Origin: Mytilus trossulus
Lineage: Eukaryota
Direction of reading: 5' to 3'
DNA: 64,000 bases
Assembly (NCBI RefSeq): GCF_036588685.1
Contig: NC_086374.1
Coordinates: 72,850,001 to 72,914,000, forward strand
The notes beneath the pieces were generated by a model. The model did not search any database. It saw only the letters and a list, made by a program, of their open reading frames with translations, and was not told the origin of the DNA. Shown piece by piece: positions 38,256 through 61,971 of this stretch. A program made the position numbers and the translations under genes. How positions within the stretch are numbered: the first letter of the stretch is position 1; every line of letters starts with the position of its first letter.

Positions 38256-38529
38256 TTTTATTTTCACTGGAGGCAACCATTTTCTGTAAACACATGTAAC
38301 CTTCCGGGTTTTAGGTCTAGTTGAAAACCAAAAAGAAAAATAATTACCTTTTCCAAAAATATGCATTTCATGAATGTAAATTTATTTGTTTTCTGGCCAT
38401 TATCTAATCATAACATATTCTTTTAATTTATTCTGTCTAATAATGAATGTGTTTTCGAACAATATGAATAAACAGTTTCTTAAAAATAAAATGGGTAATT
38501 ACGGTAATCTAAAAATAGCTTTAAGGTTA

Positions 38530-38539
38530 GTCACGTGAC
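38530..38539. promoter_or_regulatory. Palindromic E-box/CLEAR-type element in a bidirectional promoter
   Basis: Exact GTCACGTGAC between divergent ATGs at 38255 (-) and 38638 (+), in a locally CpG-rich segment. Confidence 0.6.
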
Positions 38540-38637
38540 AGGTAAAAAAACATAAGAGGAACCATACCTCGTTACGATTAAACGTCAAGCGGGAATACAA
38601 GTAGGTGCACTTGTGCTGCTGTAAAATAGTCAAAGCT

Positions 38638-41600
38638 ATGGGTCGCTGGGGAAATGCCCGGCTTGTCCGACGTGACAGTCCAACTTTTGAGGATGTTGAG
38701 CTCCGTTCAAACCGAAGATTGATCGAACAGGTAAACCATAAAATTACAATAATGTAAAAATGTTCACCCAAGGTATTAGTTTTAGTGTTTTTAAAGCACC
38801 AGAGCATTTATTCAGCAGGGTTTGTATTCACAAATATCCCTCCAAATATGTAGTATAACACTTCAATTAACTTAATTATATTTAGAAGCACTTATTTATT
38901 GACATATTTCACTTGCCACAATTTTTTAGCAAGAGTTATTTCCCTTGACACAATCTTGGAACAAATCTAGCAGTTAGTTATCATCATAGCTGGATTTTCA
39001 TGTGTCACAATTTTCAAGCAATAGTTATTTCCTTTGACACAATCTTGGAAAAGACCTAGACGTTAGTTATGATCATAACTGGATAACAAATAAAAATAAG
39101 TTTTTTACTTGATTTATTTAATATAGGCATTTACTCCTCAGTTCTACCTTATTTATAGATGTAAAAGTGATACATGAGGGTAGAAATGACGTTTAACATC
39201 AGGCTTCAAACGGTAATTTCAGCTACTGCCATTGTCAAATTGGTTAAAATCTCATCATGTTTCGTCAGAGTTCTTAAAATATTTTCATCAACTTGATTCG
39301 TGAAGATCAGTAGATTTTTTTTATCGTCTAATAAAGTGTTTTGTCATCATGCACCAAAAAATACTGAAACGTTTTGACAGTTATATGCCAAGAAGGTACC
39401 CCCATTACAACCCTCATGCATTTATGGTTCAACAATGGTCAGATGCAAAATAAATGCAGAAAAAAAAATGTTTGAAGTCAACTGACAGCTCAATGCTTGT
39501 ATTCAATGCTTGTATTCATTCTTTGTGCAGGAGGCAAAATTTGTTTTGGTTTTATTTTGTGTATTATTTATCTTGTGTTGCTTCTTGCTGATATCAAAAG
39601 ATTATAAAAAATAACTTTCATTTATATCAGTTGGACTGAAATTTATGCACATGATTTTGATGCATTTCAGTTTTCCTAATGAATTAAGCCTGTAATAAAG
39701 AATTCTTCAAAACAAAAACTTGTAAATGTTCTTTTGTTAATATAATTGTTAGTTTTATAATCAATAAAAGACCAATAGCAAATAAATATGTCATATAACT
39801 AAAGTTTTCAATGTAAGAAGTTACACAATTTGTCACTGAAACTTTATTTAAAGAGTGCATTTGTCATTTGAAAATATTAAAAATCTATTCAAGTTTGTCC
39901 ATCATCAGAAAAAAAAGTCAATTATGTGCGCCATTATGACGTCATTTAACATATAGAGTCTGAGAGGATCGCCTCATCCCTGCACTACTTACGTTCATCA
40001 AGCGTCTTAGTGATCGTAACTGTACAGGATAAAGTAGAAGTAATGTTTGTTCTGTAGGTACTTACATGTAATGCTGACTGTCATTTATGAGAATTTAATT
40101 TGCTGAATTATTGGTGCAATATAGCTGCAGCATCATAGTTTTTGATGACACCCTTAAATGCATGCATGATGTTCAATTAAACCAGAGATTTTGACAGAAA
40201 TGCATCCAACTTGAAAGTTGTCTATTGAAATACAATTCAGCATCAAATATTTTAAAAGTAAAACCACAAATAACTGAACTCTGAGGAAAAACTCAAATGG
40301 AAAGTCTCAATTGTATGGCATAATCAAAATGGTTTTGCTTAGATACTGGTTTGACCTATGACATATGGTTTAGTTGGTGTTTGTTAACTTCTACAAAAAT
40401 GTGTATAACAGTTTATCATCTTATAACTTTTTGTTAAAGATCTGATTCTACACCTACAACAATCTTTCATTGAATACATTAATAGAAAAGGAGTGTTTCT
40501 TATTAACATAAAATGCATGAATGACTAAAACTGGATTTGTAGGAATCTAGTAGTAAATTGATTCTATTGGAAAGGTTAATATTTGTTATGTTGAGAAATT
40601 TTTCGTAGATATTTGTAAATTAAGGAAGAAATTGTCAATGAGACAATTTTTTTTAATTTAATTATGTGATCAGTTGTATTGCCCTTTTGTGAGTCATCAG
40701 GAACACATATATTGTTAGATATACTGTTCCCAGGAGTCATACATTTTTTCATACAGGAAATATTTGGACAAAAAGTATCAATCAAAAAATGAAAGAAAAC
40801 TTTTCAAGGGCTGATTTTGTGTGTCAGAAAGTTCATTCATATTTACATCCCATATATATATATGATGTCCATGTTTTGTGGAGTGAGGAACTTGTAAATC
40901 AGTGGACAATAAGTTCTAGAGTTATTTCCCTTATCATAGACATTGAAATTTTGTATAACAAAAGTAAATTTAAAGGATGCATAATTTATGGATTAAAATG
41001 CATTTCAATTATATAACAAAAAGTGTTTAATCTCATTAGTTAAAAATAAGTATCAATAAGGTGTATGCCTCAGAATTCATGGTTCACTGAGGCTGAACAT
41101 GGACACAGTGCAAGAAGGAAAGAGTTGATATCAAAATCTATTCTTGTTGAATTTACATTTTTTTAGTCTAGGAGAAAAGGCTTTAAAATCATATTTTCAC
41201 CATCTATTTTTAATGTTTTATATATATATTTTTTTAACAGTTCAACTGATTTATTTAAGTTTGATATGGTTCTGAACAGCATTGTTTAAAGTGAGTGTTA
41301 TAAACATAATATAGTCAAACTGTTAATAAGGATTAATGCATTAAAATTCATTAATTTCATATGGGGTTCTGTTGGGATTGTAATTTATATGAATATAAAG
41401 TTCTTTCACATTTTGTTTATATATTCTGATATAAAGAATAAAAATAAACAATATTTTCTTTCATAACTAAAAGAAATACTGTATAAATGAAATTTATTGA
41501 TATTTAATCATAAAAACAATCCACCCATTGAGATTCCATATCAGTTTAATCAAGGGTCCCCTTTATTTTCACCTCTGTGTATTACACCTAGGAAACAAGT

Positions 41601-44600
41601 AGTTTTTTACCTGGACATATTTTTTATTTTGTATAATTAAAAATTGATGGACTACTGGCCACAATGACAACTATTTCACCATGTAAGTAAAAGTAATGGT
41701 CAGTTTTATCCCTCTTTTGTGGCATTTTATGTTGTTCTTAAAATTGGCTAGAAGGAGTAAGCATCGTAAATATTATTACTGATATATACTTCAAATTCTT
41801 TTTGATCCTTTGTTAATAGTGTAAAAATATTTTTATAATTGATTTGACATTGTTTTTACAACATGACCCAGATTGACATATTTATAACATATAGTTTACA
41901 TGCCTTTAAGCTATTTTTTTTACAAATTTATTGGTAGGGGAAATCTTAAGGCATATTAATTATTTGTCCTGAAGAAGAGTTAAAATAATTTGCATCCATT
42001 GTTTGACATCATATAGAAACATATAAAGCATATCAGAGACATATATATTAGTATGTATCTGGCTATATATCTTAACATCCAAATAGCCATGTCCTATAAG
42101 AATATAAGATAAACACTAGTAGATTTTTAAAAAACAAACTCTTATTTTGCTAGTGGGTCTCTTTTGCTCTTCTTAATTGCAATCTTTTTATAATTCCCTT
42201 GATACAGTTCATTTAATTTAAACCCATATTTATACATGAATTGTTGGAAAATGCCATATTACTACGTTAATTTCCTAAGCAAAATTGCAAGCTAAACATG
42301 TTACAGCATTTTGAGGCTACATGTATTTGAAGTCCCTTTTTGGGAAGAAAAACAATGGATACACATTCAAAACCAAATTAGATTATTACGAACAAAACCT
42401 GTTTTTCTAGTTTGTTCAGAATTGTTTTTAACAGAAAAAAAACTTTATACATATGTAAATGTATATAAATTAAAATGCTTACTTATTTTAGTCAAAATAA
42501 CTGTTTTAAAAAAAGTTCCATATCTGTACGAGGGTCAAATATTTCACATGTTTCCAAGTTATATTTTGTGGGTAAATTTCCCCCTTAATTGTAGCTATAA
42601 TATTCTAATGTCAAATGTATTAAACAACGTAAATCATCTGGATCAAACAACAATAAAAAAAACTCTTGAAAAAAAACCTGATATTTTTCTTATGATAAAT
42701 TTTTTGGTTTAATTTTCAATTTAGGATGTATTTTGTCAAATTTTTTGTCAGATACTTGGGCTTCTGAGATCAATATTATAAAGGGTAAAATACTTTGCTT
42801 CACAACACCCATTGTTTCCTACTTTGGTTTCTAAACTTATTAAAGTTGAAATTGAGCATTCCAATGTCCACACTGTCAAATGATTAATTACTTAAACATA
42901 TATATGTTCATGTTTTTACAGATGAAACTAAAAAGAAATCAAACTTAGGAATACTAAAGCCATTAGAATGGAATGCTACTGGGTTTACATATTTATTGGT
43001 AATACAGTGTGACAGTTTGAACATTTTGTGCCATTGCATGCTGTGTTCATCATATGTTGATATCTGTGTTGGGTTTCTGGTCAAATCATTGAGAAAAAAC
43101 ACAAACAAATAACACAGAGGAAAGAAATTGTTCCTTGTTCGTAGAAACGTTTAAAAAAAAAAGATAAACTTTTGTGTTCTTGTCACAATAATACCTTATT
43201 TTACATGATATTTGATACTAGAGTCTAGACGTGATCAATATTGAGAATGTCAAAACTGAAAATGAAAGGACCATGAATTCAACACTGATATCAACATTAA
43301 ATTAAACCTAAATATTTCCCCTTGCCTAAAGAATGTTAAAATACAAATCAATTTATTTTTTATACAGCCAAATATGATTTTGAGAAAACTGATACAGTTG
43401 GTTTCTTGGAGAGGGTGAGAATATGATTTAATTCATGTACATTGTAGTATTATCAAAGAGCTTACAATTAATTTGAATGTTTTGGATAAAGGTTCACCAC
43501 ACATAATCATATTATAGACTTTGTACAGTTGACACGAAAAAATTCTAATGAAAGGAAATGGTTAAAATTATGAAACAGTAAATATTTATTTGATGATTTT
43601 TTTGGGTATATTTTTCAAAATAATTCATGTAATTAAAAATTTTAGTTAAAGAGACATAACCCAACCTGAATAGACCCTTAAAATGAAATTATGATCCTGT
43701 TTGGTGAACCATATAGGCTGAAGTAACAAATCTTCTTTTCTTCTACTTTTATCAATTTCTTTGGCTGATATCTCAAGTTTTATAATCACAGGTGTAGTCA
43801 TTGTTCATGAAAGATCTCCTCTAGTTCAGCCAATCTTAGTGATTATGTCCCACAATGCAATTGTCTTTACAATCACTTTAGATTTTAACTGGAAGCTGAT
43901 TGGTGTTATAGATATACAAATGTATCTAGATTTTAACATGTAGATATGTCTGCTAGACTATCACTTGTTTGTATTATAGTCAATGCCTTGGACATCTATA
44001 TCATTGGTTGTTTGTTCAATGTCCAGTGGCAAATATTTCATGCATTTTGTGTGAAGTTTTCATCTGACTTAAATGCAGGTTTACATTTTCATGATTCTAT
44101 CCCCTATATAAATCAATACTTTTCCTTATTAAGTGACCTTTTGATTAAAAATACATGTCTAAATATTTTGTAAATTTGATTCATCAATTGAACTGTTGTA
44201 AGATGTCTACTAGATGTGTCACATCTTATAATTACCTTGACATAATCTATATGATTCAATCATTGTATTGTTCTTATTAAGTTATGTTATTAGGTCAATT
44301 CTTTGGTTTCTAGGTATTAATAAGTATACTAATATATGTAAACTGATAATAAGTGGCTATAATATTACCTAACCAAAGTTTTACATTTAATTTTTATTTG
44401 GTCTCTTACATGCTGACAGTGGCGGATCCAGAACTTTTCTTAGGGTTGGGACTGGGCCCGCTGACTGGCCTTAAGGGGGGCTCCAGTCATGCTTCAGGGA
44501 TTTTCTATATAGTCAACCAAATTTTTCCCACCTAAGGGGGGGGGGGGCAGGCCCCCTGGATCCGCCTATGGTAGGTACAACATCTTTGCATGTTCACATT

Positions 44601-47600
44601 TATTTTGTTTAGAAGTATAATGTACAAGGATTTGGATTACAGCATATATATTATTATAATATCCATGTTCATTATCATCATGTTCTCTTACATACAATGT
44701 GTTTACATTCACTGTTTTCATACACTATTAGTGCTTGCATCTGTATGATAATTTACTGTTTTGAGGGGAGGGTTCTAGAATTGAACTAAAATTTATAGAC
44801 TGTGCTTCTGGTCATGACTTGAAGCCATTATTTATAACATTGACTTGATAATTCATATGGGACTTGACAACACAATTGTTCATATGGACTACCAACCCAT
44901 TAACTATCTTCTCAACTTATAAACTTTGATATATATAGATAGCTTTAATATTAATGCTGTAGTTGGTTGCTGTCTGTCATATTTTTTTCATTTCATCCTT
45001 CTTTTTTTGGTTTCAATTGTTTCCCTTTTTGTCATGTAAAGGCAGTTAAACATGTAGCTGACTTAATTAAATGTATGAGTTTGCTTATTGTTGAAGGCAG
45101 TACAGTGTCAAATATTTGCTAAAATGCAAGTCATTGGGACTCGTGTGGATAATTGTCTCATTGGCAGTTTTACCAAATCTCATAATTTTTATTTCTATAT
45201 ATAGTCCGTATACATAATATTGAGAATGTTAAATTGATGAAAAGAATTCTCAGTATTTGATCAAAAGAAGAACGCCTACCAATGTACTCAAATAAAAAAA
45301 TGTTTTCAAGGACTTTTAAATGTTTAGTGTGTCAACAGTGTGTTTCCTTATGTATTAATCCATGTCTGTGTTCTGAATACTAACTGAATTAAACTGCTTT
45401 AACACTCATGAGTGTTACACTGCTTGTAGTGTGGTATTTGCACTGAATTGACATGTTTTTATATAGCTTAGCTTAATAGCTAGGATGTCCATATATTAAA
45501 CTTAAAACATACTTGTACTTTCATTTCTCAGAATGTATAGTTAACAATAGACTGATGAGGTTTTTTTGATTTACAAAATGTATACACAAGTCTGCCTTTA
45601 CATAAATTAGATGTTGAAGATCAATACAATAATGTTTTGTCATTTTTTTACCTGTCTTCAAATGGAATCGGTAAAACTTCCAGGTAGTCCAGTGTGCCCA
45701 CTTCCAAGCCAAACATATATTTATTTGTTCACCATAAAATTAAATTGCAATAACCTGAGTCTACAGTATTTGCAAAATTGACCTACCAATGTACTCTTTT
45801 ACTTTCAATAGACTATGATTTAAAATTCAATATTATTGGATTTTTTTTTATTAAAATTCAATGCTAAATATGTGAATTTTTTTAAATTCAATATGTGTGA
45901 AATTTAATTGTACACAAAAGTACCCACCAATCAGAATATTTCTTCAATGTTCATTAACAACTGGAGTAATACTACTGACAAGTCGTGAGATGACAATGCA
46001 TCTTTTCATTCTGATCAAGGATTTGAATAATGAATATTCCTTGATCTGATTAGATGACATTAATCTTACATAACAATAAGAATTTGCAAGTGAAGAATTT
46101 AAAATGTGTATCTCTCAATCAGTGTTTAGAATTACATAATTATTTTTAACAGTATTATCAGGTCTACCACGAATTGGTCATGCTTCAGTACCCACCCATT
46201 GTTCTCTCTGTGTATTTAATCCTGTGTGTTTTAAATCTTTATTTGTTCGTTTAAACTTTCGGAGACCACAGGTTTTATTTGCCGGTCAATACAATTACAT
46301 GTATGCTTGTTTGACCACTTTGCAACATTAGGCTGCATGTAGGACTACTGTTAATTGTAGAATTTCTTTTGTATGACCACATTTGATCGGCTGCCGTGAC
46401 AATTTAAGCATACAGTGGAATTCGCTCATTTTGATTTTTTCTATGAAAAAAGGTAGGATTTTTTTTGCCACTTGAATGAATTTGTTTGAAGAATTGTTAA
46501 TAAAATCTACATCTATTAAATGTTAAGTGCTAGAAAAATTACAATAAAAAAGCATTTAAATATATTCAGGGTGTAAAATCATCATGGGCACTCAAGATTT
46601 TTATTTTACCTGAGTGTGGTCACTTATTTTAACAATACAAACATTTAAATTTTGACCTAAAAAGATATTGTTTACTGTTGAATAATAATATAAGTCTACA
46701 ATATCAGTCGGCTCATTGATTAATTGGAATATATTATTTTTAATTTGATTAAGAGGTTCATGTTTATCAATAATTTATCGTTCACGGAAGACTTAATATA
46801 GGTGAAAATATATAGAACTTAACATAAGAGAAATAATGTCAAAATAGTGAATTCCACTTTAAGCTTGAATTGATTTCCAATACCTTCATTTTTGGTGTCA
46901 GAAGATAGAACACAGCATTGTAGAAGATTGTCAGAATAGATTTATTTTGTAATTCTTATATGGAGTCTGGATATCTTTGTGCAAGATTTGAAAAGTAGAA
47001 TTTTTCGTATTTAGTAGCTTTATATCAAAACTATGGAATATCGCCAATCTAGATCTGAAATATATCTCCAACCAGAAATAGGTAATTACCGCCAGCCTCG
47101 TTCAGAAATGCGTGTTTCTGGTCGGTCTTACAGACAACCTAAGCAAAGAACAGTGCAGTATGTTACAAGGGAACAACCCAGATATATTGTTAGACAAAAT
47201 GAGGAATTATCACCACAATATGTGGTCAGAGAGAGGAGTAGGTCACCATATACGATAAGTAATGGTCAATCTCCGCAATATGTGGTCAGGGAAAGGAGTA
47301 GATCTCCATATATGATAAACAATGGTCAATCGCCTCAATATGTGGTACGAGAAAGGAGTAGATCTCCATATATGATAAGTAATGGTCAAACTCCTCAATA
47401 TGTGGTCAGGGAAAGGAGTAGATCTCCATATATGATAAGTAACGGTCAATCTCCGCAATATGTGGTCAGAGAAAGGAGTAGGTCACCATACATGATTACT
47501 AATGGGGACTCCATTTCACCTCGCTATATAACAGAAAATCCATATGCTGTGAAAGATAGAAATATTCTTCTGTCAAATGGAAATACACGTTATGTAAGCA

Positions 47601-50600
47601 GATATCAACCTAGGCCCCTTACAGAAATGGAGTTAGATATGTACAAGGTATACTATATTTTTTGTTCCTTAATACATTGAACACGATTGTCATTATGTAT
47701 TCATTAATGCAATGATATCCCTAGTTTCAGTGCGTAAGGCTCAGTGTTCATGCTATATTAGTTAAAGCTCTAGTTTTAATACGACCGCAAAATTTGAAAA
47801 TATTTGCTCCATAAGTATTATTGGTATGACATTGGCGTTGTCGTCGTCCGAAGAATATGGTTTGCCCACTATAACTTAAGTATAAGTAAATAGAAATCTA
47901 TGTAATTAAAACACAAGGTTTATGACTATAAAAGGAAGGTTGGGATTGATATTGGGAGTTTTGGTCCCAACAGTTTAGGAATTAGGGGCCAAAAGGGGCC
48001 CAAATAAGCATTTTTCTTGGTTTTTGCACAATAACTTAAGTAGAATTTTAAAAGAAAGCTATGCAATTTTAACATAAGGTTTATGACCACAAAGTTTTGG
48101 AGTTTTGGTCCTAACAGTTTAGGAATTAGGGGCCAAAAGGGTTTCAAAATTAAACTTGATTTCATCAAAAAATGAATTAATGGAGTTCTTTGATATGCCC
48201 AAACTTACCGTGTATTCAGATTCTTAATTTTTGGTCCTGTTTTCAAATTAGTCTACATTAAGGTCCAAAGGGTCCAAAATTAAACTTAGTTTGATTTTAA
48301 AAAAAAATAAATTCTTGGGGTTTTATGATATGCTGAACCTAACTATGTATTTAGATTTTTGATATTGGACCAAAAAAAGGTAAATGTCCAAATTTTTTTT
48401 TTTAAAGTTTTTAAGTTTCAGTTCTTAGACCACATTCATTCTATGTCAGAAACCTATGTTGTGTCAACTATTTAGTCAAAATCAAAATTCAGAGCTGTAT
48501 CAAGCTTAAATGTTGTGTCCATACTTGCCCCAACTGTTCAGAGTTCAACCTCTGTGGTCGTATAAAGCTGCACCCTGCAGAGCATCTGGTTTTGTTTGAA
48601 ATATTCAGATATTGTTTCTACCACTCTTAAAATTAAATGTACAGAACAAAAGTATAAGTAAAAGAGCCTGTAGAAATTTTCTTGTGAGTTCATCTTAACT
48701 TCCTCACGATGTTTATGATTTTTTAGCGCAAAATCGTTTAAAAAAATTGTCTCCTGAGTATTGGATCATCCTTGCACTCTATATACAGTTTTCTGAAATA
48801 ACTATCCAGCATTTACAAAGTATTTTAAGTATTTAAGGTAAAGAAATATTTCATAGAGGACTTTATTTTCACATATGTGTTAATTTGACCTTCTTACAAA
48901 CTTCTGAATTCTTTGTGTAATGAAATCTTTGTATTATGGATCTTATTGTATCTTTAGAGAGATTGGTACTGAACATTAAATTAATTTTGATTCTAAAATA
49001 AGACATAACGATTAAAGATTTATCAAACTTTCCTTGAGGTAATTTCTACCTAGGGTTAACATAAAGGATTATATATGTAATTTAATACAGTCTAGAAACT
49101 GTCTTATTGAACCTTGAAGATATTTTTATCACAATATAAATTCTTTATCTGTTAAAAAAACGCCCAACTTTACCAAGTTGAATGATTGAATACTGTTTGC
49201 CTAACATCCAGTGGCAAATATTTCGTGCAAATTCAGAAGTAGAAATGATGGACAAATTAATGCAGGAGATGAATAAACCCCTTTATTTTACAAAAGTGGT
49301 GTACGGGTTCTTCAAAATAGGTTAACCAGGTTGAAAAGAGCTTTGAATGGCTTCATTTGAAGGTTTTTGTATAGTTGTCTCAAAGGCATTCATACTGCAT
49401 ATCCTTACTTAATATTAGAATGTAGATGGCTTAAAAAAGTGGATGCTGGAAAGGGAAAGAAATTCTGCCTTGCAAAATGCTACTGAAAGGCCTCTCAAAG
49501 AGTTATTATAATTGAAACATGGCTATCACCATGATCAAGCATTGGTTTATATGTAACTATTCTAAATCGATATGACTGCATATTTATAATATCCTGCAAT
49601 GAAACAAATGCCCTATATGGGTTTAACTACCAAATGGAAATCTGGGCGAACATGCTTCTTTACCCTTTCAACTGTCAGGGTTAACAGGAAGGATTTCTAT
49701 AAAAAAAAATCTGTTAGATCATTATAAGGACAAATATATTTCTTTGAAAATCAAATTCATACTTTCTGAACTGATAAGAATATGTTGTCAAAAAGAAAAT
49801 TTTCAGTTTGAGAATTTTATTTCTTAAAAAGCATCTTAAGGGGGAAAATTATGACTATATAATTGAAAATGAGAATTTAAATATTAATGATAATGGCATA
49901 TATATATCAGTGACGTTTAGATATTGTACTTGAGATGCACGATTACTGTTGTTATAGAAATGTAAAATGAAGATTGTTTTGTGTGAGTCTGACAGGATTT
50001 TCCTGATATTGTCAAATATTTTATTTCATGATTAATACTTTCTTATATGTAAATAATTTATTACAGATCAAGTGACATTGAAAAGAAAAATGCTTACTAA
50101 AGGACTTTCAGTGCATCCTTTACATCAATTCTAAGAGAGTCAATTTTAATCAGGAACACAAGTCATTTATATTTTGATAAGATGCATATTATTTTCTACT
50201 TAAAATTAGAACATTATGAATTGTTAAAATCTTTGCAAAATCTGGAATTTTCAACCCTTGACCTTTAACCCATTCATGAGAAAATTAAAAAGTACAAATA
50301 CAAGATGACTTGGCAGAAAAAAAAGAACACATAATCAGCTTTTTAAAACCTATACTTGGCATAGAACCTTGCTGGGTGGGTGTATTGGACTTTAAATTTA
50401 TATGCCTGATGTCATGCAAATTTTCATCATAATTAGACAAGCATTTTGTCATGTTAGTGGGATGTTGGAATCTGTATACCTTGATCAAATATGAATGATA
50501 TTGTATGTAGTAATGCTAATTTGTTTTCCTATAAGACAGTAAGACTTCAAAGCTGAGGAGAGATATGTAAAACTTATGTTGTAAACTTGCAACAACTAGT

Positions 50601-53600
50601 AGAACCCAAAGGGTAGAAATAGCAATTGTTGAAGGCATATGTTTGATAGACTGGTTTCCTGTTATTTTAATATTGAGTCCTTGTTCTGATAAAGGTCATA
50701 AAATACCTCCAATGTTAAAGAGTTATCTCTTATTTTACCTGTTTATTATTTATATATCTCAAATTCATTATTTATGAGTGATTATCCATTTCCTTATGTT
50801 CTAATGGAGTACCTTAAATGTTAAAGAGTTATCTCCCATTTCCTCAGTTCTAATAGAGCAATTCGACTGTTTTTTTATTAGAGTACTTTCAATGTATTTA
50901 AAGTTATCTCCCATCTGACCTGTTCTATAAGAGTGTCTTTAATTTCAAGGAGTTATCTCCCATTAAATATAAAAAGTGGGTTTAATTTTTCATTTTATTG
51001 TTGAAAATGTATAGTTAAATAACGCTTAAATGAATTAAGATGCTTTCTAAGAGTTTAACATAATTGAATTAGTTATAACTAAGAAGTATATCTTTTATTT
51101 AAGAAATAATTCCTTCATGTCATGCTCTATGCTCATTTTAACATGGGTAGGCATTATATTTGTCGATATTTTACACTGAGCGTTTATTTTAACATGGGTA
51201 GGCATTATATTTTCAGATATTTTACACTAAGCGTTAGAGAGGTGTAAAATGTTGTCAAATATAATGCCTAACCATGTTAAAATGAGCAAAGAGCATGACA
51301 TGAAGGAATTATTTCGATTCTAATATGACAAATACAATATATTTATAGATTGAAGCGTACGAAAATACCGTCAGAATGTTTGGCTGTTCTCGTGTCCTCC
51401 CCTAGGAGTTTGTATATTACATTTCATATTTGATAAGTTTAAAAACAACGAGCAGGGCAAATATATGTTGTTTGATAAAAATATATAATAAAAGTTTATG
51501 TTAGCTGCTGAAATGTAAATATTTAAAAGGATAACGATGGAAATAACGTTAATATAAACAGTAAGTCCGTGCGCATGTGTCAAACATATTTTTTGTGCTC
51601 ATTAGAACACGGCTTTGTTAACAAAGCGTAGTAAGGACGTCATATTAGAATAAAATTATTTATCTGTACTTGATATATATTTGCTGATCAACAAATCTGA
51701 ATACAGCATTATACTATTTAAGTAGCATTTAATGTAGCTTTAATGTGTTCAAGGTCTGAAAACTTTGAAACAACTATAAAGTCAATAATAAATCAGGTTC
51801 ATCTTATAACTATAACTCTGCATAAATTATTGAAGTTTCTTTTTGTTGTGTTGATATTATAAATCATGACCCCCATACAACTTAATCAAGTCTGAAATGT
51901 ATGTCTGTTCTATATTTTTTTTAATAATAATTATATTTTTTTCTTCTTTTTCATTTTCATGACAACAGAGATACAAGCCAATATTTGATCGGGTGAGTAC
52001 CTCATTTTTGCAGAATTCTTATGTGGTAGATACTTAGGTACTATTCTTCTAATTATAAATGAGGCTGAAATTGACCAGAAATTAACAGATACCATGTGAT
52101 TATTTGTTGACATTATTCAGTGATTAGCAAGATGATTAGTTTCCAAATTGTACCATCAATTGTACTATATTTTTAAAGTTGTCAATCTATCTATTATATT
52201 GTGAAAACTTGCTTTTTTCTCATCGTGTGAACAAATTCTTAATATAAAATTCTTTACAATTTGTACGTTTATCAGAATATAGAATCAAACTATTGAAAAG
52301 TTTCACACTGCATTTAGTCTGCCAACTGTCATGTGACATTCAATTGATTCAAGGTTAATCTCTTAAAGATATTGTTGACATAAGATTTTTTATGATTTAG
52401 AAAGCTTTCTCTTTTTTTTTTGGTATTTTTATTTGTATTTATTGATAATTATGGAATTCACTCAACCATTGTGTCAACAACACACATTTCCTTAAGATAA
52501 CGTAGTATAAAATCACTGAAGAGAAAAAAAATAAAACCATTAAAATAGAGTGAAACCTGTTTAAATTGAACTGCTTCCTCAGACAATATTTATGGTTTTG
52601 ATTAGATATTTAATGGTAATAAGTATAAGTTTAAATCACAAAAATGTACAAAATAATGGCGTTAATGGAAGAGGTCAATTTCAACAGGTTTTGCTGTATT
52701 ATGAAATACCAAGCTAACTGTGATAACTACAATAAGATCATGTTTAAAAGTTCATGTAAAGGTTTGCTTATTTTTGGTGTCAAATTAGTTAAAATGGGAA
52801 ACAAATACCTTAGACCCATGATCGATGGTGCAATAACAAGGTCATGAAGAACATTATAATCAGCATCTCAGTCATGAAAATAATTATAATATTTCAGAAT
52901 CAAATTAATAAAAACTCTTTGATTCAGGGTTTTAAAAAAAATACCCTTTGCCTAAACATTGAGTCAGCTGAACATGACTTTTCCCCCTGCCTGTTTTAAA
53001 TCTTTTGCTTATGTTGCTGAAGATATTTAGGTCTATCACCAGAAGTTCATAATCAAGGGGAAGACATTCATACTACTAAAGGAAGAGACCACCAATTTTT
53101 TTTTAAAATAATCCAATTCAAACCGGACTGTGTCATATATGCTTTCAGGCATGTTTAGTCACCACGAAATTTAAAAACTTTTGTCTCAACACTTGCTAAA
53201 TTGAACCACGATTTTGCAGGCATCTTCTTAGTTGTTAAGAATTAGGAATGTTATTAGGTTATTTCTCTAATTTGGATGCTGTATCATTGACATATTCCTT
53301 TTCTAAGTACTGTACAGAACAACTGCTGTTTCTTGACAAGTTTTTTTTTTATTGTAGCATGAACCTGATGGCGTACCTCTCAATCTCCTGAAAGAAGAGT
53401 TAAAAGATGAAGGGATCACAGATCATATCCCAGAGGCCAGGCTACATCGTATCCTTGACAGAGCCGATCGGGATGGAGACGAAAGAATTGATTTTGTGGA
53501 ATTCATGAAAATGGCAAGTACATGTATATTTACCGAGTTATAATAAAGTTGAATGGTAAAAGGGTTGTCCTTTTTATACTAGTATATCATAAAACAGTAA

Positions 53601-56600
53601 TGTTAAAAGATTTAACAATCCAACTGCTTTTAATTAAGAAAAAAATGTATTTTGTTCGTTTAAGTGATTAAATACTCATAAAAGACTAAGGTGGTCAGGA
53701 TGGCAGTAAGTAGGCTAAAGCATTCAATATTTTAAAAGTGAAGAAAGTATTCAGAGATGTCAGTTACGATTGTATGCAGACTTAAAAATCCATGAATTAA
53801 AATACTGGATTTGATGTTCTGAGCACAAGTTTTGGTCTTTAAGCTGCAGAGGTAAGTTTAAAGATTAAAGAGCCCTATGGGGGGTCAAAATTTATACACT
53901 AAATTTCTGGCAAAGTTTCTACCAGTCTAAAGAAAACCAAGAAAACAATACTTTCATACCCTTAGTCACCTTTGGAGTATCAGCTTAAAGTTACTGGTAA
54001 TTATGACTAAGATTATATGGTATATATTCTGTTTGAATATCATTTATATATATCATTTTTATGCTAATTTAGAAGTTGCATATAATCTTAAGAATTTAAA
54101 AGAATGTCATGCATGTTAACACTACAAAATATTTTCATTTTGGGTTGAAAAAAAATGAGGAAAAGAATCAGATAAATAATGTGTTATTGTTCTATTTATA
54201 GATGACAACAGATGTAACAAAGGAAGAGAGATCAGCATTTCAGAGTGTTATAGGTGCTGCTGTCGCTGATATTTTACCCAAGAGTATGAGGGAAGATTTT
54301 CTTGCCAATTACACCTGTAGACCACCACCTATATTTATGATATTTATAAGTTTAGTTGAGGTAATTATCTGCTAGTCAATGAAAAATGTACCTGGTGGGC
54401 AATTTTAAACTCCATTCAGTCAGTGGTTAGAATTAAATTAGACCACATGTGGATTTAGTTTTCTGATGTCCTTAACATGATTGTATTTCAGGTGCTTTTA
54501 TTAGTAGCGAATACTTTATGACAGTAATTGGTAGATTTTTTGACAACAGTCTCATCAATTATGGTTGAATTTGATCATAGGTCTTTTAAAATGAAGGAAA
54601 AACATATATGAGAACTCTTTTTGTTTGATCTTAATTTTCTCAATTTCACAACTGCTTCATTTTTAGAGTTGAGCATATATATTCCTTAAAACTCAACAAA
54701 ATAAATTGAAAGTTGTTTTTATGCCCACCTACCATAGTATAGGGGCATATGTTAACTGGTCTGTGCATCTGTTCATTCATTCGTCTGTCCATTCGTATAT
54801 TCTTCTGGCCTGCCTAGGTTAAAGTTTTTGGTCAAGGTAGTTTTTGATGAAGTTGAAGTCCTATCAACTTGAAACGTAATACACATGTTCTCTATGATAT
54901 GATCTTTCTAATTTTAAAGCCAAATTAGTGTTTTTACCCCAATTTCAAGCTCCATTGAACATAGAAAAGGATAGTGTGAGTGGAGCATCCGTGTACTGGG
55001 GACACATTCTTATTGTTATCAAATGTTGATTTTAGTAAATTAAATTACCAGGAAAAAATAATATTTAGTATAAATCTTGAAAGTTTTAAGGTAAAACGAA
55101 ACAAATTACTATGCAGATTAAAAAAGAAATCACAAAATATCATCCCACTCATACTCAAAAACATCTATTACAACAAAAGTCCCTTTAAATTTAGAAATTA
55201 TAAGCTTGTACCTTGAAGTTTTAAATAAGCATTAATTCTGAAAAAAAAGATTAATAAAAGTAAACTGCATTAAAAACATACATGTACCTGAATATAAATC
55301 ATAAAAATCACAAAATATCTACCCACTCAAATATCTCATAAAATTAAGGCCTCTTTAACTCAATAAAAAATATAGGATTCCTCGTAATTGAACAGAAATG
55401 GGTTGTAATTGCCAATGGTAGGAAGTCCTCGATATTCTGTACCTGAAACTGTCGTAGTTATCATGCAGTCAATATCCCTAAACATTGATACTGGTACATT
55501 GACTGATTGTGCTACTTGCTCTTTGTTGGAAGTAAGCCAACATTTGTGGATACAGTAAAGGATAGTAGTACCAAAGCCAGTAGTATTTAACACCAACAAT
55601 CAAGAAGACTGGCATTACAAAGGCAAAAATTAGATAAAAGTTCCACATCATTACAAAAGTTGTCAGATATCGGTTTACTTAGTTGAAAGCAATTTACATC
55701 TGAGTAAAAGGCCTCAGAGAAGATCAATTGTATAGCAAGCAGTCACTGTAGTTCACTAAACACTACACTGAAAGTCAAAGATTGAGCAAGATAATGCCCA
55801 TTCCAAGATAGGGGTGAAATCAAACATACATATAGGCAACAGTTCACTAAACACTACACTGAAAGTCAAAGATTGAGCAAGACAATGCCCATTCAAAGAT
55901 AGGGGTGAAATCAAACATACAGGCAGCATTTCACTAAACACTACACTGAAAGTCAAAGATTGAGCAAGACAATGCCCATTCCAAGATAGGGGTGAAATCA
56001 AACATACAGGCAACATGTCACTAAACACTACACTGAAAGTCAAAGATTGAGCAAGATAATGCCCATTCCAAGATAGGGGTGAAATCAAACATACATATAG
56101 GCAACAGTTCACTAAACACTACACTGAAAGTCAAAGATTGAGCAAGACAATGCCCATTCAAAGATAGGGGTGAAATCAAACATACAGGCAACATTTCACT
56201 AAACACTACACTGAAAGTCAAAGATTGAGCAAGACAATGCCCATTCCAAGATAGGGGTGAAATCAAACATACATATAGGCAACAGTTCACTAAACACTAC
56301 ACTGTTAGTCAAAGATTGAGCAAGACAATGCCCATTCCAAGATAGCGGTGAAATCAAACATACATATAGTCAACAGTTCACTTAACACTACACTGAAAGT
56401 CAAAGATTGAGGAAGACAATGCCCATTCCAAGATAGGGGTAAAATCAAACATACATATAGTCAACAGTTCACTAAACACTACACTGAAAGTCAAAGATTG
56501 AGCAAGACAATGCCCATTCCAAGATAGGGGTGAAATCAAACATACATATAGTCAACAGTTCACTAAATACTACACTGAAAGTCAAAGATTGAGCAAGACA

Positions 56601-59600
56601 ATGCCCATTCCAAGATAGGGGTGAAATCAGATGCAGTTGTTTCTGTATTTATAATATCTGGCACACTCTAAATCACCTTACTACTCAAGGTGGGGTATAC
56701 TGGTTTATGTTAACCATTGAGTTATCAAATTGATATTTAACAGTCATCACACATTTATTTGCTTAATTTGAAGTCCATTACATTACTATTTTTATATTTC
56801 AGATCATTATATTTGCTGTGTATGCTGCTGAGCTATCGGACACCACAACACCAGTAACAGCTACCTCAGGGGTACCACTGTACAGTCCGTTACTATATAA
56901 ACCAAAGAGACGTTATGAGGCTTGGAGATATATCACTTATATGTTTATACATCAAGGGTATGTTATTGTTATTTATATTCTTATCTCTCTGTTCCCTATA
57001 GAGGTAGTATAAAGATAGGAAAGAAGTGATCTGATTATTTAATTCCCTATAGAGGTAGTATAAAGATAGGAAAGAAGGGATCTGATTATTAAATAAATCA
57101 TTACAAAATCAGTACATGCACTTGATTTAACAAAAACCAAAGAATACAGTTTTTATGGCATCTTTACTAATATCAAAATTGGTAAAATTTGATAGAGCCG
57201 AATTTCTAGATTATATAGATCAAATTCAACATTCCAGAAATTCAGGTCTATAAAATTTACGAATTTGATATTTTATACCTCCTCCGGAGTCAACATATTT
57301 CAGAAATTCTGGGAAACCATTTGAAAATAAAGTAATATTTGCTCACCTGGAATGGAATCATATCTTAATTTATCATTTCTTTTGGATATTTCTGGAAATA
57401 TTTTGCATCAATAGCACAAAAAAGATAAGACTTTGTAACTACTGTGGATTCATTATTATTCGTGGGATACCAATTTTCGTGGCTTTCGTGGGTACTGGTG
57501 AACCACGAAATGAGATGTTTAACGAATAACAAATTTTCTATAGGCTTGTATGTAGACTTCAGCAAAACCACGAAATTAGATATCCACAAACTTTCAAGTT
57601 TTCCATAATCCACGAAAATTGGTACCCACGAAAAATAAATGAATCCACAGTATGCAAACATTTCTAGCTGGTAATGAGAAATCTTGCAAAAGTTGAGTCT
57701 CAAGGTTCCCTCCAAAACTCTCTCTCAAAGTCCAGACATAAAAAATAGCTTCTGTGTTATGGTAGCGAGTGGATTCTATCTGTTATCCAATACTATGATA
57801 TATGAGTGGTAATCATGTCAGATGTAAGAAGTAGTTGAACAGAAAATGTTGACCCTTATGCAAATTATGTGTGCTGAAAACAATGATCATTTACAGATTA
57901 TCAACAAAATAAGGATATTTTTCTTTGTGAATAAATAACTTAAATTATCTTTGGCAAAACATTTATTAGAAATTTTGGGTCCTCAATGCTCTTCAACTTC
58001 TTTATTTAGCCTTTTTATCTATTTTTTAATTCAGCGTTATTGATGAGTCTTTTATAGAAGACGTACAAAATAAACAAAGTTGAAATTATATAAAAATGGC
58101 TGAATTAATTCATTTACCATCACCACATCACCATGTAGATGACATAGCATCTATGAATGCTTTAATATAGATTTATTGCTGATATTTGAAAGTATGTTAT
58201 TGTTTATTTCAGATACATGCACATCATATTTAACCTGATATTCCAGCTGTTATTAGGTTTACCATTAGAACTGGTACATAAATGGTGGAGAGTTCTGTTA
58301 ATCTATATATTAGGAGTTATAGCCGGTAGGTGATTTAAAGATATTATACAACAATAATTTATCTCATAAATCAATTGAGAAAATACTAATCAAGCCAACA
58401 CCAATACAAAATGAGGGAATTCAAAGAACTCAAAAAGGAGCAATATTAGGTGTGTCAATTAAGAAAATACTAAAAAAGGCAACATTAATAAAAACGAGGG
58501 AACTGAATGAAGTCATAAAGGAGTAATTCCAGGTGTATTGACAGATAAGACATCTCCTGTTATTAATGCATCACCAATCATACAATCCATTTTCTGGAAA
58601 TGAAAACAATTAGCAAAATCATACTTGAAATGTATAAATGCTATTTTAGGATCGCTTGCCCATTTTGTAACATGTTACACTTTAAATGATTTCATGTTAT
58701 TTCAGGATCACTTGCTTATTCTGTAACATTTTACCTGTTTAATGTTAACATGTTTTATCTCTTGCACGTTAAAGCCACCCTTGTAGATATTGAAAAAGAG
58801 CAGGCTAATGCCGCTACAAGGCAGCATTCGCACCCGCAAAGTGGAAAGGGATTTATATAAGTTGCAAAACTTGTTTCCCTATCCACTATAAATAAATATG
58901 TTTAAACTAAACATGTTCTTTCAGCATCACTTGCCATTCTGTGACAATTTACTTGTTTAATGTTAACATATTATTTTTATATCACTTGCCCATTCTGTAA
59001 CATTTTACTTGTTTAATGTTAACATGTTATTTGAGGACCACTTGCCCATTCTGTAACATTTTACTTGTTTAATGTTAACATGTTATTTGAGGATCACTTG
59101 CCCATTCTGTAACATTTTACTTGTTTAATGTTAACATGTTATTTGAGGATCACTTGCCCATTCTGTAACATTTTACTTGTTTAATGTTAACATGTTATTT
59201 TAGGCTCACTTGCCCTTCTGTAACATTTTACTTGTTTGATGTTAAATGTAATTTGAGGATCACTTGCCTATTCTATATTTTAAGTTTAAATGTTATTTCA
59301 GGCTCACTTGCCCATTCTATATTTAAAGTTTAAATGTTATTTCAGGCTCACTTGCCCATTCTTTATTTAAAGTTTAAATGTTATTTCAGGCTCACTTGCC
59401 CATTCTATATTTAAAGTTTAAATGTTATTTCAGGCTCACTTGCCCATTCTATATTTTAAGTTTAAATGTTATTTCAGGCTCACTTGCCCATTCTATATTT
59501 AAAGTTTAAATGTTATTTCAGGCTCACTTGCCCATTCTGTAACAGATGTAGATGTTGCTCTAGCAGGAGCCAGTGGTGGATGTTACGCTCTTATTGGTGC

Positions 59601-61971
59601 TCATATAGCGTCTGTTATAGTTGTAAGTAAAGATTAGATATAAAGCATAAAAATACCTAGTAAATTGCTCCATGTTTTGGTTCTTTGAAAATTGTGGAGC
59701 CTATCACTTAAGTGAAGGTTATGTGATGAGCAAGAAATATGAATATAAGGAGAAGAATTTGACCGCAACTCAATTGCTTTAGTTAGAATTCCCTTACTTA
59801 TTTATAATGCACTAAAAACTGAGGGATACAGTGATTATCGATATAAAAATTCCAACAAACAACAAAACCAAAAGCTAAGGAACAACATTTTATTGCTGTT
59901 CACAATCTGACTTTCATATTCTGGCCATCAACATAGATCATATATTTACACTTCACTGAAAGTTAAACAAGGAAACTCTTTTTACACATAATGACTTGTA
60001 TGGAGAGTTGTCTCTTAGACACACATACCACATCTTCATATTTCTATTGGAGCACACTGATGTAGGGTATATTCATCAGTGAATTGAATTAAAAAAAGCA
60101 ATACCACATCTTTTTATATTTATAATGAAATCAAATATTAAATTTGAATTGTATGATTATTCTTCAGAATTGGAAAGAAATGAATTACCAGTGTACTGAA
60201 GGATCATTACTGAGGTTTCTGTGCAGTGCACCTATAAGACTAACAGTGCTTCTTGTTCTGTGTAAGTAACTAAAAAGTATACCTGTATTACTGACTGATG
60301 ACTCAGTGCAGTAATTTTATATCAATGCCTTAAGCATCTTCACAACCTTCTGTTCTGCCAAATCTTGAATATATGTGAACAGATATATATTGAAACTTAT
60401 GAGAACAAAAAACATGACAGCACAAAAAAATTGTAGCGTGAAAAGATATAGAATAAGCTTTCTTTTTTTTATCAATAAAAAAATTGAGAATGAAATAAGG
60501 GAATGAGTTATAGAGACAACAACCCAACCAAAGAGCAGAAAACAACTTATATACCACAGAGAAAACTGAAAAAGAGAATAGAAAGAGTGCAAAAGATTTT
60601 GATATATTTTTTATAGAAATAAAGTTCATGTTGGTATTTCTCCAATATTTACCACTTTATATAATACAATAAAATGATTATTTTCCCTAAATGTTTCAGC
60701 TGTAGGAGATACAGGACTTGCTATCTACAGAAGATACTTTGAAGAAGAAGTAACAAAAGTTGGTATATCTGCTCACATAGGAGGGATGATTGCAGGTATG
60801 ACAGCCTAATACATAATTGCTTTAAATGCAGTCATTACATTAATGGCATTTTTCTAATTCTTTAGATATTTGAAAATTAAAGACAGTCGTTTTTTGCAAA
60901 AAACATTTTATTTAGCCAACAATATACATATTTTCTAAATAAATATTACTGAAATCTTCATCCAAAAATATGCATCATGAACTTTATGAACAACATTTCC
61001 CACAAACAACAAAACTATACCATTTCATCATGTTGATGGCATTATATAGAGTTGTCCAATCATTTATGAATAAAGAACAATTTAGTGAAACAAAAATAAG
61101 CTATGACACCTTTTAAATTGTTTGATTCTGTAGTAAAAAATGTAAGACAATAAAAATATGTCAATTGTATAAAGAAACAGGACAACATTGCTATCAGAAA
61201 TAAATTGTTATGGTTACAAAAAGAAAACACCAGAAACTAGCTATATCTTGTTCACAGAAAAGAATAGAAGCAATCTAAAGTCCTCTAAAAAAAGAATCAG
61301 TAATAACTTAAATTATGGTTCTGGTATAATATGCAAGCTCCAGCTTCATTCATGATCCATTGACCCCAAAAAGTATTGCAAATACCATTTAAAAAATCAA
61401 TTGACAAGTCAATAGGGAGAAAAGGCAAAAAACATTGGGATAAATGGAGTAATTCTGCTGTCATTCATGATTTAAGGTGATACCAACTACCTTGTCTTTG
61501 GCTCGTTTAATTTTCATAAAATTTTGACAAAATGTTTAATTTGACATTTTGTCAAAAATATAAAGATTTCAAAAAATTTGAACCAACCACTTTATCAGAT
61601 AAATTTCATTGGTTATATAGCAGTTTGACAAACACTAATTTTGATCATTGAGAAGCTTAATATTTCCTTAACAATACAACATGATTAAAACATTTAGCTG
61701 ATTTTACAGAGTTATCTCCCTGTAGTGTTAGGTACCACGTAATGTATTTTTTTCACTAAAAATTTTGCAAATGTGTAAAGAGTTTATTTCTTTTTCAGGT
61801 TTACTACTTGGAATACCCATCTTGAAGAATGTAAACATCTTAACTTGGGAGAAAACCCTTGGTTACGTTACTCTTTCAATATACCTGTGCTTTGTTGGGT
61901 TTTCTATGATTTTCAATGGTGTTTATGAAGGCTACCCAGAAACAGATTGGTCAAAATGCTGTCCATCGTAA
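38638..61971 (+). CDS. EF-hand rhomboid intramembrane serine protease (RHBDL1/2/3, Rho-4-like), ~387 aa; exons 38638-38730, 51969-51992, 53358-53513, 54202-54360, 56803-56957, 58213-58325, 59522-59622, 60168-60261, 60700-60795, 61799-61971
   Basis: EF loop DRDGDERIDFVEF, YTCRPPPIFM, EAWRYITYMFIHQG, HIIFN, catalytic GASGG and AHIGGMIAG. All exon phases are compatible. The first exon is less certain than the core. Confidence 0.9.
41664..43414 (+). CDS. Candidate alternative rhomboid 5' exons 41664-41682 plus 43368-43414 (MTTISPSKYDFEKTDTVGFLER)
   Basis: gccacaATG context, T|GTAAGT donor (phase 1), tttttatacag| acceptor and AGG|GTGAGA donor (phase 0), in frame with the microexon. Confidence 0.45.
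44417..44570. mobile_element. Small hAT-like MITE
   Basis: TIR CAGTGGCGGATCCAG / CTGGATCCGCCTATG; no clear target-site duplication. Confidence 0.65.
47033..47647 (+). CDS. Candidate alternative first coding exon of the rhomboid: 205-aa Arg/Ser/Tyr-rich repeat domain
   Basis: aaaactATGG start, ~4.7 copies of a 60-bp unit encoding SPQYVVRERSRSPYMISNGQ, and an AAG|GTATAC phase-0 donor. Confidence 0.7.
47772..48592 (-). mobile_element. HINE-like element in reverse orientation
   Basis: Subterminal repeat tacgacc / ggtcgta, gtcgtcgtc microsatellite and duplicated internal units (aggaattaggggccaaaaggg). Confidence 0.7.
51103..51315. repeat. Long foldback palindrome (~75-bp arms) with an internal ~50-bp duplication
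   Basis: gaaataattccttcatgtcatgctct...ttttacac / gtgtaaaa...agagcatgacatgaaggaattatttc. Confidence 0.85.
54716..55013 (-). mobile_element. Short HINE/pearl-like element, copy 3
   Basis: Reverse complement of the 21642-21900 family. Confidence 0.75.
55751..56628. repeat. Intronic minisatellite of 87/91-bp units, ~10 copies
   Basis: Near-identical units of cactaaacactacactgaaagtcaaagattgagcaagacaatgcccattccaagataggggtgaaatcaaacatac. Confidence 0.95.
57440..57652. mobile_element. Tc1/mariner-type MITE, copy 2
   Basis: TA-CTGTGGATTCATT...AATGAATCCACAG-TA. Confidence 0.85.
58640..59543 (+). repeat. Tandem array (56-bp then 44-bp units) of the rhomboid intron/exon junction
   Basis: tgttatttcag|gctcacttgcccattct and variants, ~15 copies; the last is the real exon start. 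Confidence 0.92.
58755..58909 (+). mobile_element. 5'-truncated SINE inserted in the junction array
   Basis: Flanked by duplicated AACATGTT (58747-58754 and 58910-58917), with a taaactaaac tail. gcacgttaaag resembles the conserved Meta domain of bivalve SINEs (from memory). Confidence 0.65.
61472..61742. mobile_element. Degenerate TTAA-flanked MITE (Kolobok/piggyBac-like)
   Basis: Imperfect TIR ttaaggtgatacc ... ggtaccacgtaa. Confidence 0.5.

Follow-up and report, generated by a model that had tools for sequence, protein, structure and literature searches.

The stretch of DNA analysed here (the window) covers 64,000 nucleotides (nt) of the genome of the mussel Mytilus trossulus (contig NC_086374.1, positions 72,850,001 to 72,914,000). 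On its + strand, from about 38.6 to 62.0 kb, it carries a gene for an EF-hand rhomboid, an intramembrane protease. Within this gene an earlier sequence-only reading had noticed an intronic open reading frame (ORF) with 20-residue repeats and had proposed that it supplies a long N-terminus to a rhomboid isoform. The frame is present: it is open from stop to stop at 47018-47680, with an ATG at 47033 and five repeat units at 47210-47509, and a phase-0 GT donor follows codon 205, after 47647. The stop-free run of 220 codons compares with a longest run of 164 in 200 base shuffles of 38731-51968. We consider it almost certain that the Mytilus EF-hand rhomboid gene has an alternative first exon whose coding part is 47033-47647.

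First exons and transcripts

Joining the long exon to nine core exons gave a protein of exactly 561 residues, with no internal stop and no mismatches to XP_063424189.1 (M. trossulus isoform X1). The phase-0 joint of ELDMYK to RYKPIFDR and the protease of about 561 residues had thus been predicted correctly. Four runs (X1, X2, X5 and X8), consisting of contigs that skip introns and are guessed from this to be RNA, although none of those with the exon is recorded as such, were mapped on 38300-54600. X1 and X2 belong to one study (organism A), X8 to another study (organism C), and X5 is from organism B. In X1, X2 and X8, one contig matches 47413-47645 and, after 25 letters, continues in 53357-53512 and in the exon that starts at 54201. 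The gene model predicts a shorter side of 25 letters at the micro-exon joint for the long exon and of 28 for exon 1a; 25 letters were observed in X1, X2 and X8, and 28 in X5. In X5 the depth was 54.5 at 38623, and the long exon was found only as low-depth pieces, one of them reading into the intron. The junction from 47647 to 51969 is therefore supported by presumed transcript contigs, with the long exon joined via the micro-exon to the protease exons in three of the four runs.

The same contigs bear on the alternative that the tail works off the membrane. It could then be a read-through product of its own that stops at 47680, or a fragment that is cleaved from the protease and sent to the nucleus. 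X5 record 16 crosses the donor to 47792 at a depth of about 5, all diverged records of the exon (see below) are read-through ORFs, and the tail is strongly basic (isoelectric point 10.2). However, the exon is found in the spliced contigs of three of the four runs, read-through may be pre-mRNA or DNA, and what is encoded beyond the donor is not the same from lineage to lineage, as would be expected of an intron. We regard a detached tail as very improbable.

The features of the 5' part of the gene, in window coordinates, are:

38638..38730, + strand: short first exon 1a, 31-residue N-terminus of a 387-residue isoform; fits the joint and the depth of run X5
41664..41682, + strand: small first coding exon (19 nt) common to the 388- and 378-residue isoforms; models equal P0016 and P0009 with 0 mismatches
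42922..42998, + strand: second exon of the 388-residue isoform (32-residue N-terminus); gene model
43368..43414, + strand: second exon of the 378-residue isoform (22-residue N-terminus); gene model
46370..46452, + strand: candidate non-coding leader exon, with an AG/GTAGGA donor at its end; joint not displayed
46902..47032, + strand: 5' untranslated part of the long first exon; putative acceptor 46901/46902, X2 record 7
47033..47647, + strand: coding part of the alternative first exon, 205-residue basic Tyr/Arg/Pro-rich N-terminal tail; model with 0 mismatches to M. trossulus isoform X1
47210..47509, + strand: five tandem 60-nt (20-residue) units, Tyr spacing exactly 10 residues
51969..51992, + strand: 24-nt common micro-exon (RYKPIFDR), meeting point of all four N-termini; contigs and gene model

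Within 41664-43414 the 19-nt coding exon can be followed by one or the other of two second exons, and each of the short N-termini (31, 32 and 22 residues) matches a public isoform with 0-1 mismatches. As the contigs are unbranched, and judging from how such contigs form, there was probably one dominant first exon per run, which fits promoter switching. The missing coverage of exon 1a in X1, X2 and X8 and the absence of the long exon's words from runs X21-X24 were left out of account here. A glycoside hydrolase 31 gene, which we take to be MYORG-like, lies at 29751-38381 on the - strand. Its probable first coding exon (37890-38381, without a Pfam match of its own) stands head to head with exon 1a, about 260 bases from the ATG of the latter. 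This arrangement suggests a shared bidirectional promoter at exon 1a, and the long isoform may thus need an internal promoter of its own. We infer that the long exon has such a separate promoter, used in some tissues or stages. The suggestion of a tissue-specific isoform made from the sequence was partly upheld: samples appear to switch between first exons, as a tissue- or stage-specific isoform would.

Upstream of the ATG, the match of X2 record 7 begins at 46900, at record position 84, after 83 unplaced letters. This fits an acceptor at 46902 and a leader exon with its donor at 46452; X2 and X8 also have depth in the bin 45916-46459. One X1 contig is unspliced from 46792 onward, and some runs carry 7- and 20-letter insertions at 46960 and 47023. 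One long protein is encoded by three M. edulis and two M. trossulus accessions, which is consistent with leader variants. An in-frame cassette exon with its acceptor at 47018, whose frame would be open on paper, was rejected because of the 20-letter insertion at 47023 (X2 and X5) and because contigs cross 47018 contiguously from upstream. The leader of the long isoform also contains an out-of-frame upstream ORF of 12 codons at 46960-46998, where X5 has the 7-letter insertion. A very high-copy repeat element, with a depth in the thousands in all four runs, occupies 47850-48600, just 3' of the donor.

Long forms are annotated in five Mytilus species, M. edulis, M. galloprovincialis and M. trossulus (561 residues), M. 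californianus (541) and M. coruscus (619). The public models are XP_063424189.1, XP_071154383.1, XP_076091172.1, XP_052092750.1, VDI57074.1 and CAG2242447.1. The M. coruscus model (P0008, CAC5421407.1) consists of exon 1a, 47 extra residues and the long exon, and is probably a prediction in which two first exons were fused.

Protease core and family placement

The exons downstream of the micro-exon are:

53358..53513, + strand: EF-hand region with one canonical loop (residues 250-261), GC donor; contigs and model
54202..54360, + strand: juxtamembrane helices and start of transmembrane helix (TM) 1; contigs and model
56803..56957, + strand: loop 1 with the WR motif; gene model
58213..58325, + strand: TM2-TM3; gene model and AlphaFold2
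59522..59622, + strand: catalytic GASGG (Ser425); gene model and alignment
60168..60261, + strand: core exon; gene model
60700..60795, + strand: catalytic His498; gene model and alignment
61799..61971, + strand: last coding exon, seventh TM helix and stop; gene model and AlphaFold2

The GC-AG intron at 53514-54201 was joined in all four runs. A 44-nt tandem array at 59242-59538 contains the acceptor and the first 17 bases of the catalytic-serine exon in six copies, at 59296, 59340, 59384, 59428, 59472 and 59516; only the last stays in frame, while the five decoys would reach a stop within about 10 codons. A related 56-nt array lies upstream of it. Elsewhere in the window, a 432-codon open frame on the - strand (10297-11595) has one hydrophobic segment near its start, a long Ser/Arg/Lys-rich tail and no Pfam match, and is probably the last exon of a single-pass membrane protein.

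The rhomboid domain (PF01694) was found with E 1.3e-31 and 110 bits against a cut-off of 22.6, and Foldseek gave iRhom and GlpG as matches. The core has the motifs GASGG with Ser425, His498, WR at 359 and H368-H373-N377 (HxxxxHxxxN), of which the Ser, His and H-H-N residues are invariant in 80 aligned sequences. Seven long TM helices are placed at 310-546 in the AlphaFold2 model, the extra one being C-terminal (6+1). The catalytic Ser/His dyad is thus intact in the predicted protein, which has the features of an active S54 secretase-type rhomboid, and proteolysis is predicted. In RHBDL1-3 the N-terminus faces the cytosol, as a rule of the family (bioRxiv 10.1101/2025.11.21.689725). By this 6+1 rule the long tail would be cytosolic as well. 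The EF-hand region has one canonical loop, and the Pfam EF-hand match (E 2.5e-4) was below the curated cut-off. AlphaFold2 models two helix-loop-helix units there, of which the first looks degenerate, and the last eight or so tail residues form the start of the region's first helix.

In a 37-row tree, rooted at the midpoint and built without vertebrate or Drosophila rows, the mussel protein fell into a molluscan clade (100/100), next to arthropod proteins that include one with the name rhomboid-4. It resembles EF-hand secretase rhomboids such as Drosophila Rho-4 and human RHBDL1 and RHBDL3 in its predicted 6+1 TM topology and its predicted cytosolic N-terminal EF-hand region. EF-hand rhomboids are reported to be regulated through their cytosolic extensions (PMC12615303, PMC13597478, bioRxiv 10.1101/2025.11.21.689725). 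It differs from them in the 205-residue repeat tail that precedes the EF-hand region and comes from an alternative first exon, and in having one canonical EF loop.

Long N-terminal extensions are rare among the homologues, for which 120 of the 205 matches of the core search were listed. The median extension was 25 residues among 179 homologues, and it exceeded 100 residues in eight, seven Mytilus models and one protein of Babylonia areolata (XP_076440786.1, P0066, 571 residues). No long isoform was found among the cluster members listed from oysters (40 of 87 covered, 15 listed), scallops, abalone, Dreissena, unionids, octopus and Littorina, the longest of which has 422 residues, as far as their annotation goes. 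The Babylonia protein likewise belongs to the mollusc clade, and its residues 1-208 are 7-residue tandem repeats rich in Arg, Pro, Glu and Tyr. Unlike the mussel tail, they have a net charge of -1, and they lack sequence similarity to it (best E = 20). Since this is a long-branch gastropod paralogue whose tail is not similar, its tail is probably an independent gain, known from a single automatic model and possibly convergent.

Repeat units and diverged versions of the exon

The sequence-only reading had noted that the 60-nt units differ largely at synonymous positions and had suggested selection on the protein, a view that the rates support. Of 21 distinct variants from the unit consensus, 15 were synonymous, against an expectation of 21-25 % (binomial p 7e-7 to 1e-5), and the pooled ratio of nonsynonymous to synonymous rates (dN/dS) among units was 0.075, the unit pairs being non-independent. 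Because this low ratio goes together with pairwise synonymous differences (pS) of 0.22-0.62, the units are old and have been kept alike as protein. Across the array, the remaining five frames are interrupted by 3-9 stops. Purifying selection acts on the five 60-nt repeats. There are five units in the edulis group and four in M. californianus and M. coruscus; alleles of the edulis group differ in individual units at the RERS position.

Profile searches detected diverged versions of the exon, P0184 on the one hand and P0187, P0233 and P0235 with their relatives on the other, which form two lineages. Twelve of the 46 representative tail matches were examined; two were orthologous exons and ten were unrelated repeat or low-complexity proteins. 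A further version was found in L001 (1-8192), a chimeric contig whose first ~7 kb hold bacterial genes, including a GmrSD-type gene and an AAA ATPase, and whose last ~1.1 kb hold the mussel-type exon. Up to the donor the exon encodes 124 residues in P0184, about 200 in P0187 and P0233 and 228 in L001. The diverged exons have in common RSEIY at the start, ELD[ML]YK at the end and one central unit. Beyond ELD[ML]YK come Val and a short unrelated stretch, which is what read-through of a GT donor would give. In the DNA of L001, a GT donor is found at the same place as in the Mytilus exon. The central unit occurs once in P0184 and four or five times in Mytilus, whereas the P0187/L001 lineage expanded different, downstream units. 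These versions appear to belong to other mytilid mussels and would likewise be spliced to rhomboid exons. Judged by these comparisons, the exon is older than the divergence of Mytilus from the two other lineages.

Between the exons of the window and L001, pS was 0.70 and the nonsynonymous difference (pN) 0.34. Because pS is near saturation and the alignment is gappy, no dN/dS ratio is given for this pair. The upstream non-coding region of L001 gave no alignment to the window above shuffles (score 42.5 against a shuffle maximum of 55).

Such variation could mean that the tail is a tolerated spacer, in which only the exon ends matter (the start region and the helix that completes the EF-hand region) and the middle expands freely as long as it stays soluble and in frame. 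The tail ranges from 124 to 228 residues with different units expanded, Mytilus species themselves differ by four against five units, and within the edulis group the tail is 94-96 % identical compared with 99.7-100 % for the core. A dN/dS of about 0.07 at a synonymous divergence of 22-62 % is, however, stronger constraint than a neutral spacer needs, and the near-total preference for Tyr over Phe also argues against free expansion. We find a mere spacer improbable.

Composition and proposed role of the tail

The Mytilus tail contains 21 Tyr, 31 Arg and no Phe, with 3.9 % Gly. Across the three lineages Tyr makes up 9.6-11.3 % of the tail, Phe occurs 0-1 times, Trp and Cys are absent, and the net charge is +11 to +20. 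The motif Y[VIM][VIT] was enriched in all six tails and in the Mytilus tail collapsed to one unit (reached in 0/3000 shuffles, at three-decimal precision), and Asn-Gly in five of six; the spacing of aromatic residues was more even than in shuffled sequences in 5/5 tails (p 0.04 or lower). The comparison shows a Tyr-[VIM]-[VIT]/Asn-Gly/basic pattern conserved in three lineages.

The description of the N-terminus as RS/Tyr-rich holds for Tyr but was overstated for Arg-Ser (RS). Arg and Ser together make up 27.8 % of the Mytilus tail and the longest run is RSRS, which occurs 4-5 times in Mytilus and not at all in the two diverged lineages. RS domains are long stretches rich in RS dipeptides, above about 40 % RS, accompanied in classical SR proteins by an RNA recognition motif (RRM); the lamin B receptor carries an RS-rich stretch on a multi-pass membrane protein. 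The mussel tail resembles these domains in being Arg/Ser-rich, basic and phosphorylatable, but it has only RSRS runs, split by Tyr-hydrophobic motifs, has no RRM, and its RS excess is confined to Mytilus. An RS domain of the SR-protein type was rejected on these grounds (27.8 % against about 40 %, RSRS as the longest run, no RRM). Pfam gave nothing real on the tail, only two sub-threshold matches, and the ESM Atlas yielded no usable match, which speaks neither for novelty nor for absence. Mussel foot proteins, the byssus adhesives, were considered as well; they have a signal peptide, are secreted and have Tyr converted to DOPA (3,4-dihydroxyphenylalanine). This candidate was rejected, as the tail has no hydrophobic N-terminal segment and no foot protein was among the 12 of 46 matches examined.

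The proposed phosphorylatable domain with RSP/SP sites is weakened by the comparison: [ST]P and RS/SR are present and enriched over shuffles in Mytilus but not in the diverged lineages (p 0.2-0.8). Because the excess of RSRS, [ST]P and RS/SR is restricted to Mytilus and the Tyr pattern is conserved, RS/SP phosphorylation is not the conserved core of the tail. A phospho-switch, in which proline-directed, SRPK/CLK/DYRK- or Akt-type kinases act at their consensus motifs in the RxRSRSP units and, by changing the charge, toggle protease activity or partner binding, is in our view unlikely. Each Mytilus unit does contain the motifs RxRxxS, RxxSP and RSRS, and 11 [ST]P sites occur over the whole tail, but P0184, P0187, P0233 and the L001 exon lack RSRS and have [ST]P and RS/SR at no more than chance frequency, the RERS position varies as noted above, and the Mytilus tail has no mode-1 14-3-3 pattern. 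The phosphorylated, regulatory tail of iRhom2 would be a precedent (PMC5656746). YxxPhi, PPxY and YxN patterns were not found in the Mytilus tail either.

Another reading takes the units for addresses recognised by karyopherin-beta2, resembling proline-tyrosine nuclear localization signals (PY-NLS) on a disordered linker, which would carry the protease to ciliary or inner nuclear membranes. The PY-NLS consensus is a hydrophobic or basic motif followed by R/K/H-X2-5-PY, within a basic and disordered region (PMC5544186), and Transportin-1 is reported to bring membrane proteins into cilia (PMC5087665). [RKH]X2-5PY occurs six times in the Mytilus tail (6, 5, 2, 3, 3 and 3 times in the six tails), and R-X5-PY of the core unit is retained in three lineages. 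Enrichment was significant in the two Mytilus tails only, and neither outside Mytilus (p 0.07-0.18) nor in the collapsed tail (p 0.10), and the expanded units of the P0187/L001 lineage lack PY. We therefore give this reading little credence.

The tail was predicted to be disordered, in agreement with the sequence-only reading: FoldIndex was -0.21, and the maximal hydropathy over 19 residues was -0.43, so that no hydrophobic segment is present. In AlphaFold2, residues 1-63 and 164-193 of the Mytilus tail had a predicted value of the local distance difference test (pLDDT) below 50. Residues 63-156 were modelled as ten regular 4-residue strands with a pLDDT of 63-69, and the repeats might accordingly form a two-stranded beta-roll or a cross-beta stack, acting as a rigid stalk or polymer. 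However, the diverged orthologue was unfolded in the model (mean pLDDT 31.9, predicted template modelling score 0.15, 10-sequence alignment), each unit has two prolines and four charged residues, no solenoid was among the PDB matches listed, and near-perfect repeats are reported to make AlphaFold2 produce spurious beta-solenoids (PMC11795689). A beta-roll is most improbable, and a beta-solenoid fold was rejected because the higher pLDDT was seen in Mytilus only.

We propose instead that the tail is a multivalent positioning module that holds or clusters an unchanged protease in a particular membrane domain, to which we give close to, but somewhat less than, an even chance. Through an internal promoter, some cell type would make a long-tailed rhomboid of unchanged catalytic core, in which a 205-residue basic Tyr-repeat tail, predicted to be cytosolic and disordered, replaces an N-terminus of 22-32 residues. 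The cytosolic face would then carry a basic chain in which some 20 Tyr motifs recur at even intervals. Following the idea of Tyr and Arg as stickers, these motifs may bind weakly and multivalently to acidic lipids, to a scaffold or to each other, and the number of repeats could tune avidity. The enzyme would be held in a membrane domain that decides which substrates it meets, and phosphorylation of RSRSP may be a secondary dial added in Mytilus. Calcium gating may change as well, because the tail passes directly into the first helix of the EF-hand region. Predicted disorder and evenly spaced Tyr with Arg are shared with the sticker-and-spacer regions of the FUS type, and the composition is compatible with condensate targeting, as the sequence-only reading had suggested. 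The spacers, however, are Val/Ile/Met/Pro with charged residues rather than the Gly/Ser/Gln-rich, prion-like spacers of FUS.

Regulatory rhomboid extensions have precedents in the EF-hands of Rho4 (PMC12615303, PMC13597478) and the N-terminal targeting motif of Plasmodium ROM1 (PMC3164628). The tail of yeast Rbd2 binds phosphatidylinositol 4,5-bisphosphate and acts in positioning (PMC4395130), the role proposed here for the mussel tail; in the available part of that paper it is not described as an alternative exon or a repeat, unlike the mussel tail. iRhom2 also carries a long cytosolic N-terminal tail on a rhomboid fold, but it is a pseudoprotease that recruits 14-3-3, whereas the mussel protein keeps both catalytic residues, contains tandem repeats and lacks a mode-1 14-3-3 pattern.

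Several points weigh against a positioning module. The long protein is a prediction from DNA, contigs and annotation, and in the diverged lineages the exon appears only as a read-through ORF, so that splicing to rhomboid there is inferred. The short regular strands modelled for the Mytilus repeats are unlike pure disorder. The variable length and gappy alignments of the tails imply that the exact sequence matters little, and the shared pattern may be largely simple descent from one ancestral unit, not a selected binding grammar.

A bolder form of the proposal is that the promoter switch adds Tyr/Arg import or condensate motifs that send an active protease to a compartment in which rhomboid action is not known, for example the ciliary or inner nuclear membrane. 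We think this rather improbable. If it is true, EF-hand rhomboids would have been redeployed repeatedly by repeat tails that change their location, since the gastropod paralogue probably acquired its unrelated repeats on its own.

The sequence and gene model of the long form are already public in RefSeq/GenBank, where the Mytilus 'rhomboid-related protein 1/2-like isoform X1' is the mussel long protein and the M. trossulus record is identical to it. Those models are automatic annotation only, and no description of repeats, selection, diverged orthologues or isoform switching was found with them. No study of the long-tail isoform was found in the literature searched; subscription journals and the supplementary tables of mussel transcriptome and proteome papers lay outside the search and may list it. 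The long form is a real but lineage-limited variant of a known rhomboid family, and its reach is limited by the exon having been found in Mytilus and two diverged lineages only.

Human RHBDL1 and RHBDL3 are reported to have no identified substrates, and their N-terminal domains were proposed as allosteric regulators (bioRxiv 10.1101/2025.11.21.689725). How cytosolic extensions control EF-hand rhomboids is the question that the mussel gene bears on. Separate repeat expansions in one exon retain the Tyr/Arg pattern though their units differ, and with four N-termini (22, 31, 32 and 205 residues) on an identical core, the gene would offer a natural swap for location, calcium gating and substrate choice.

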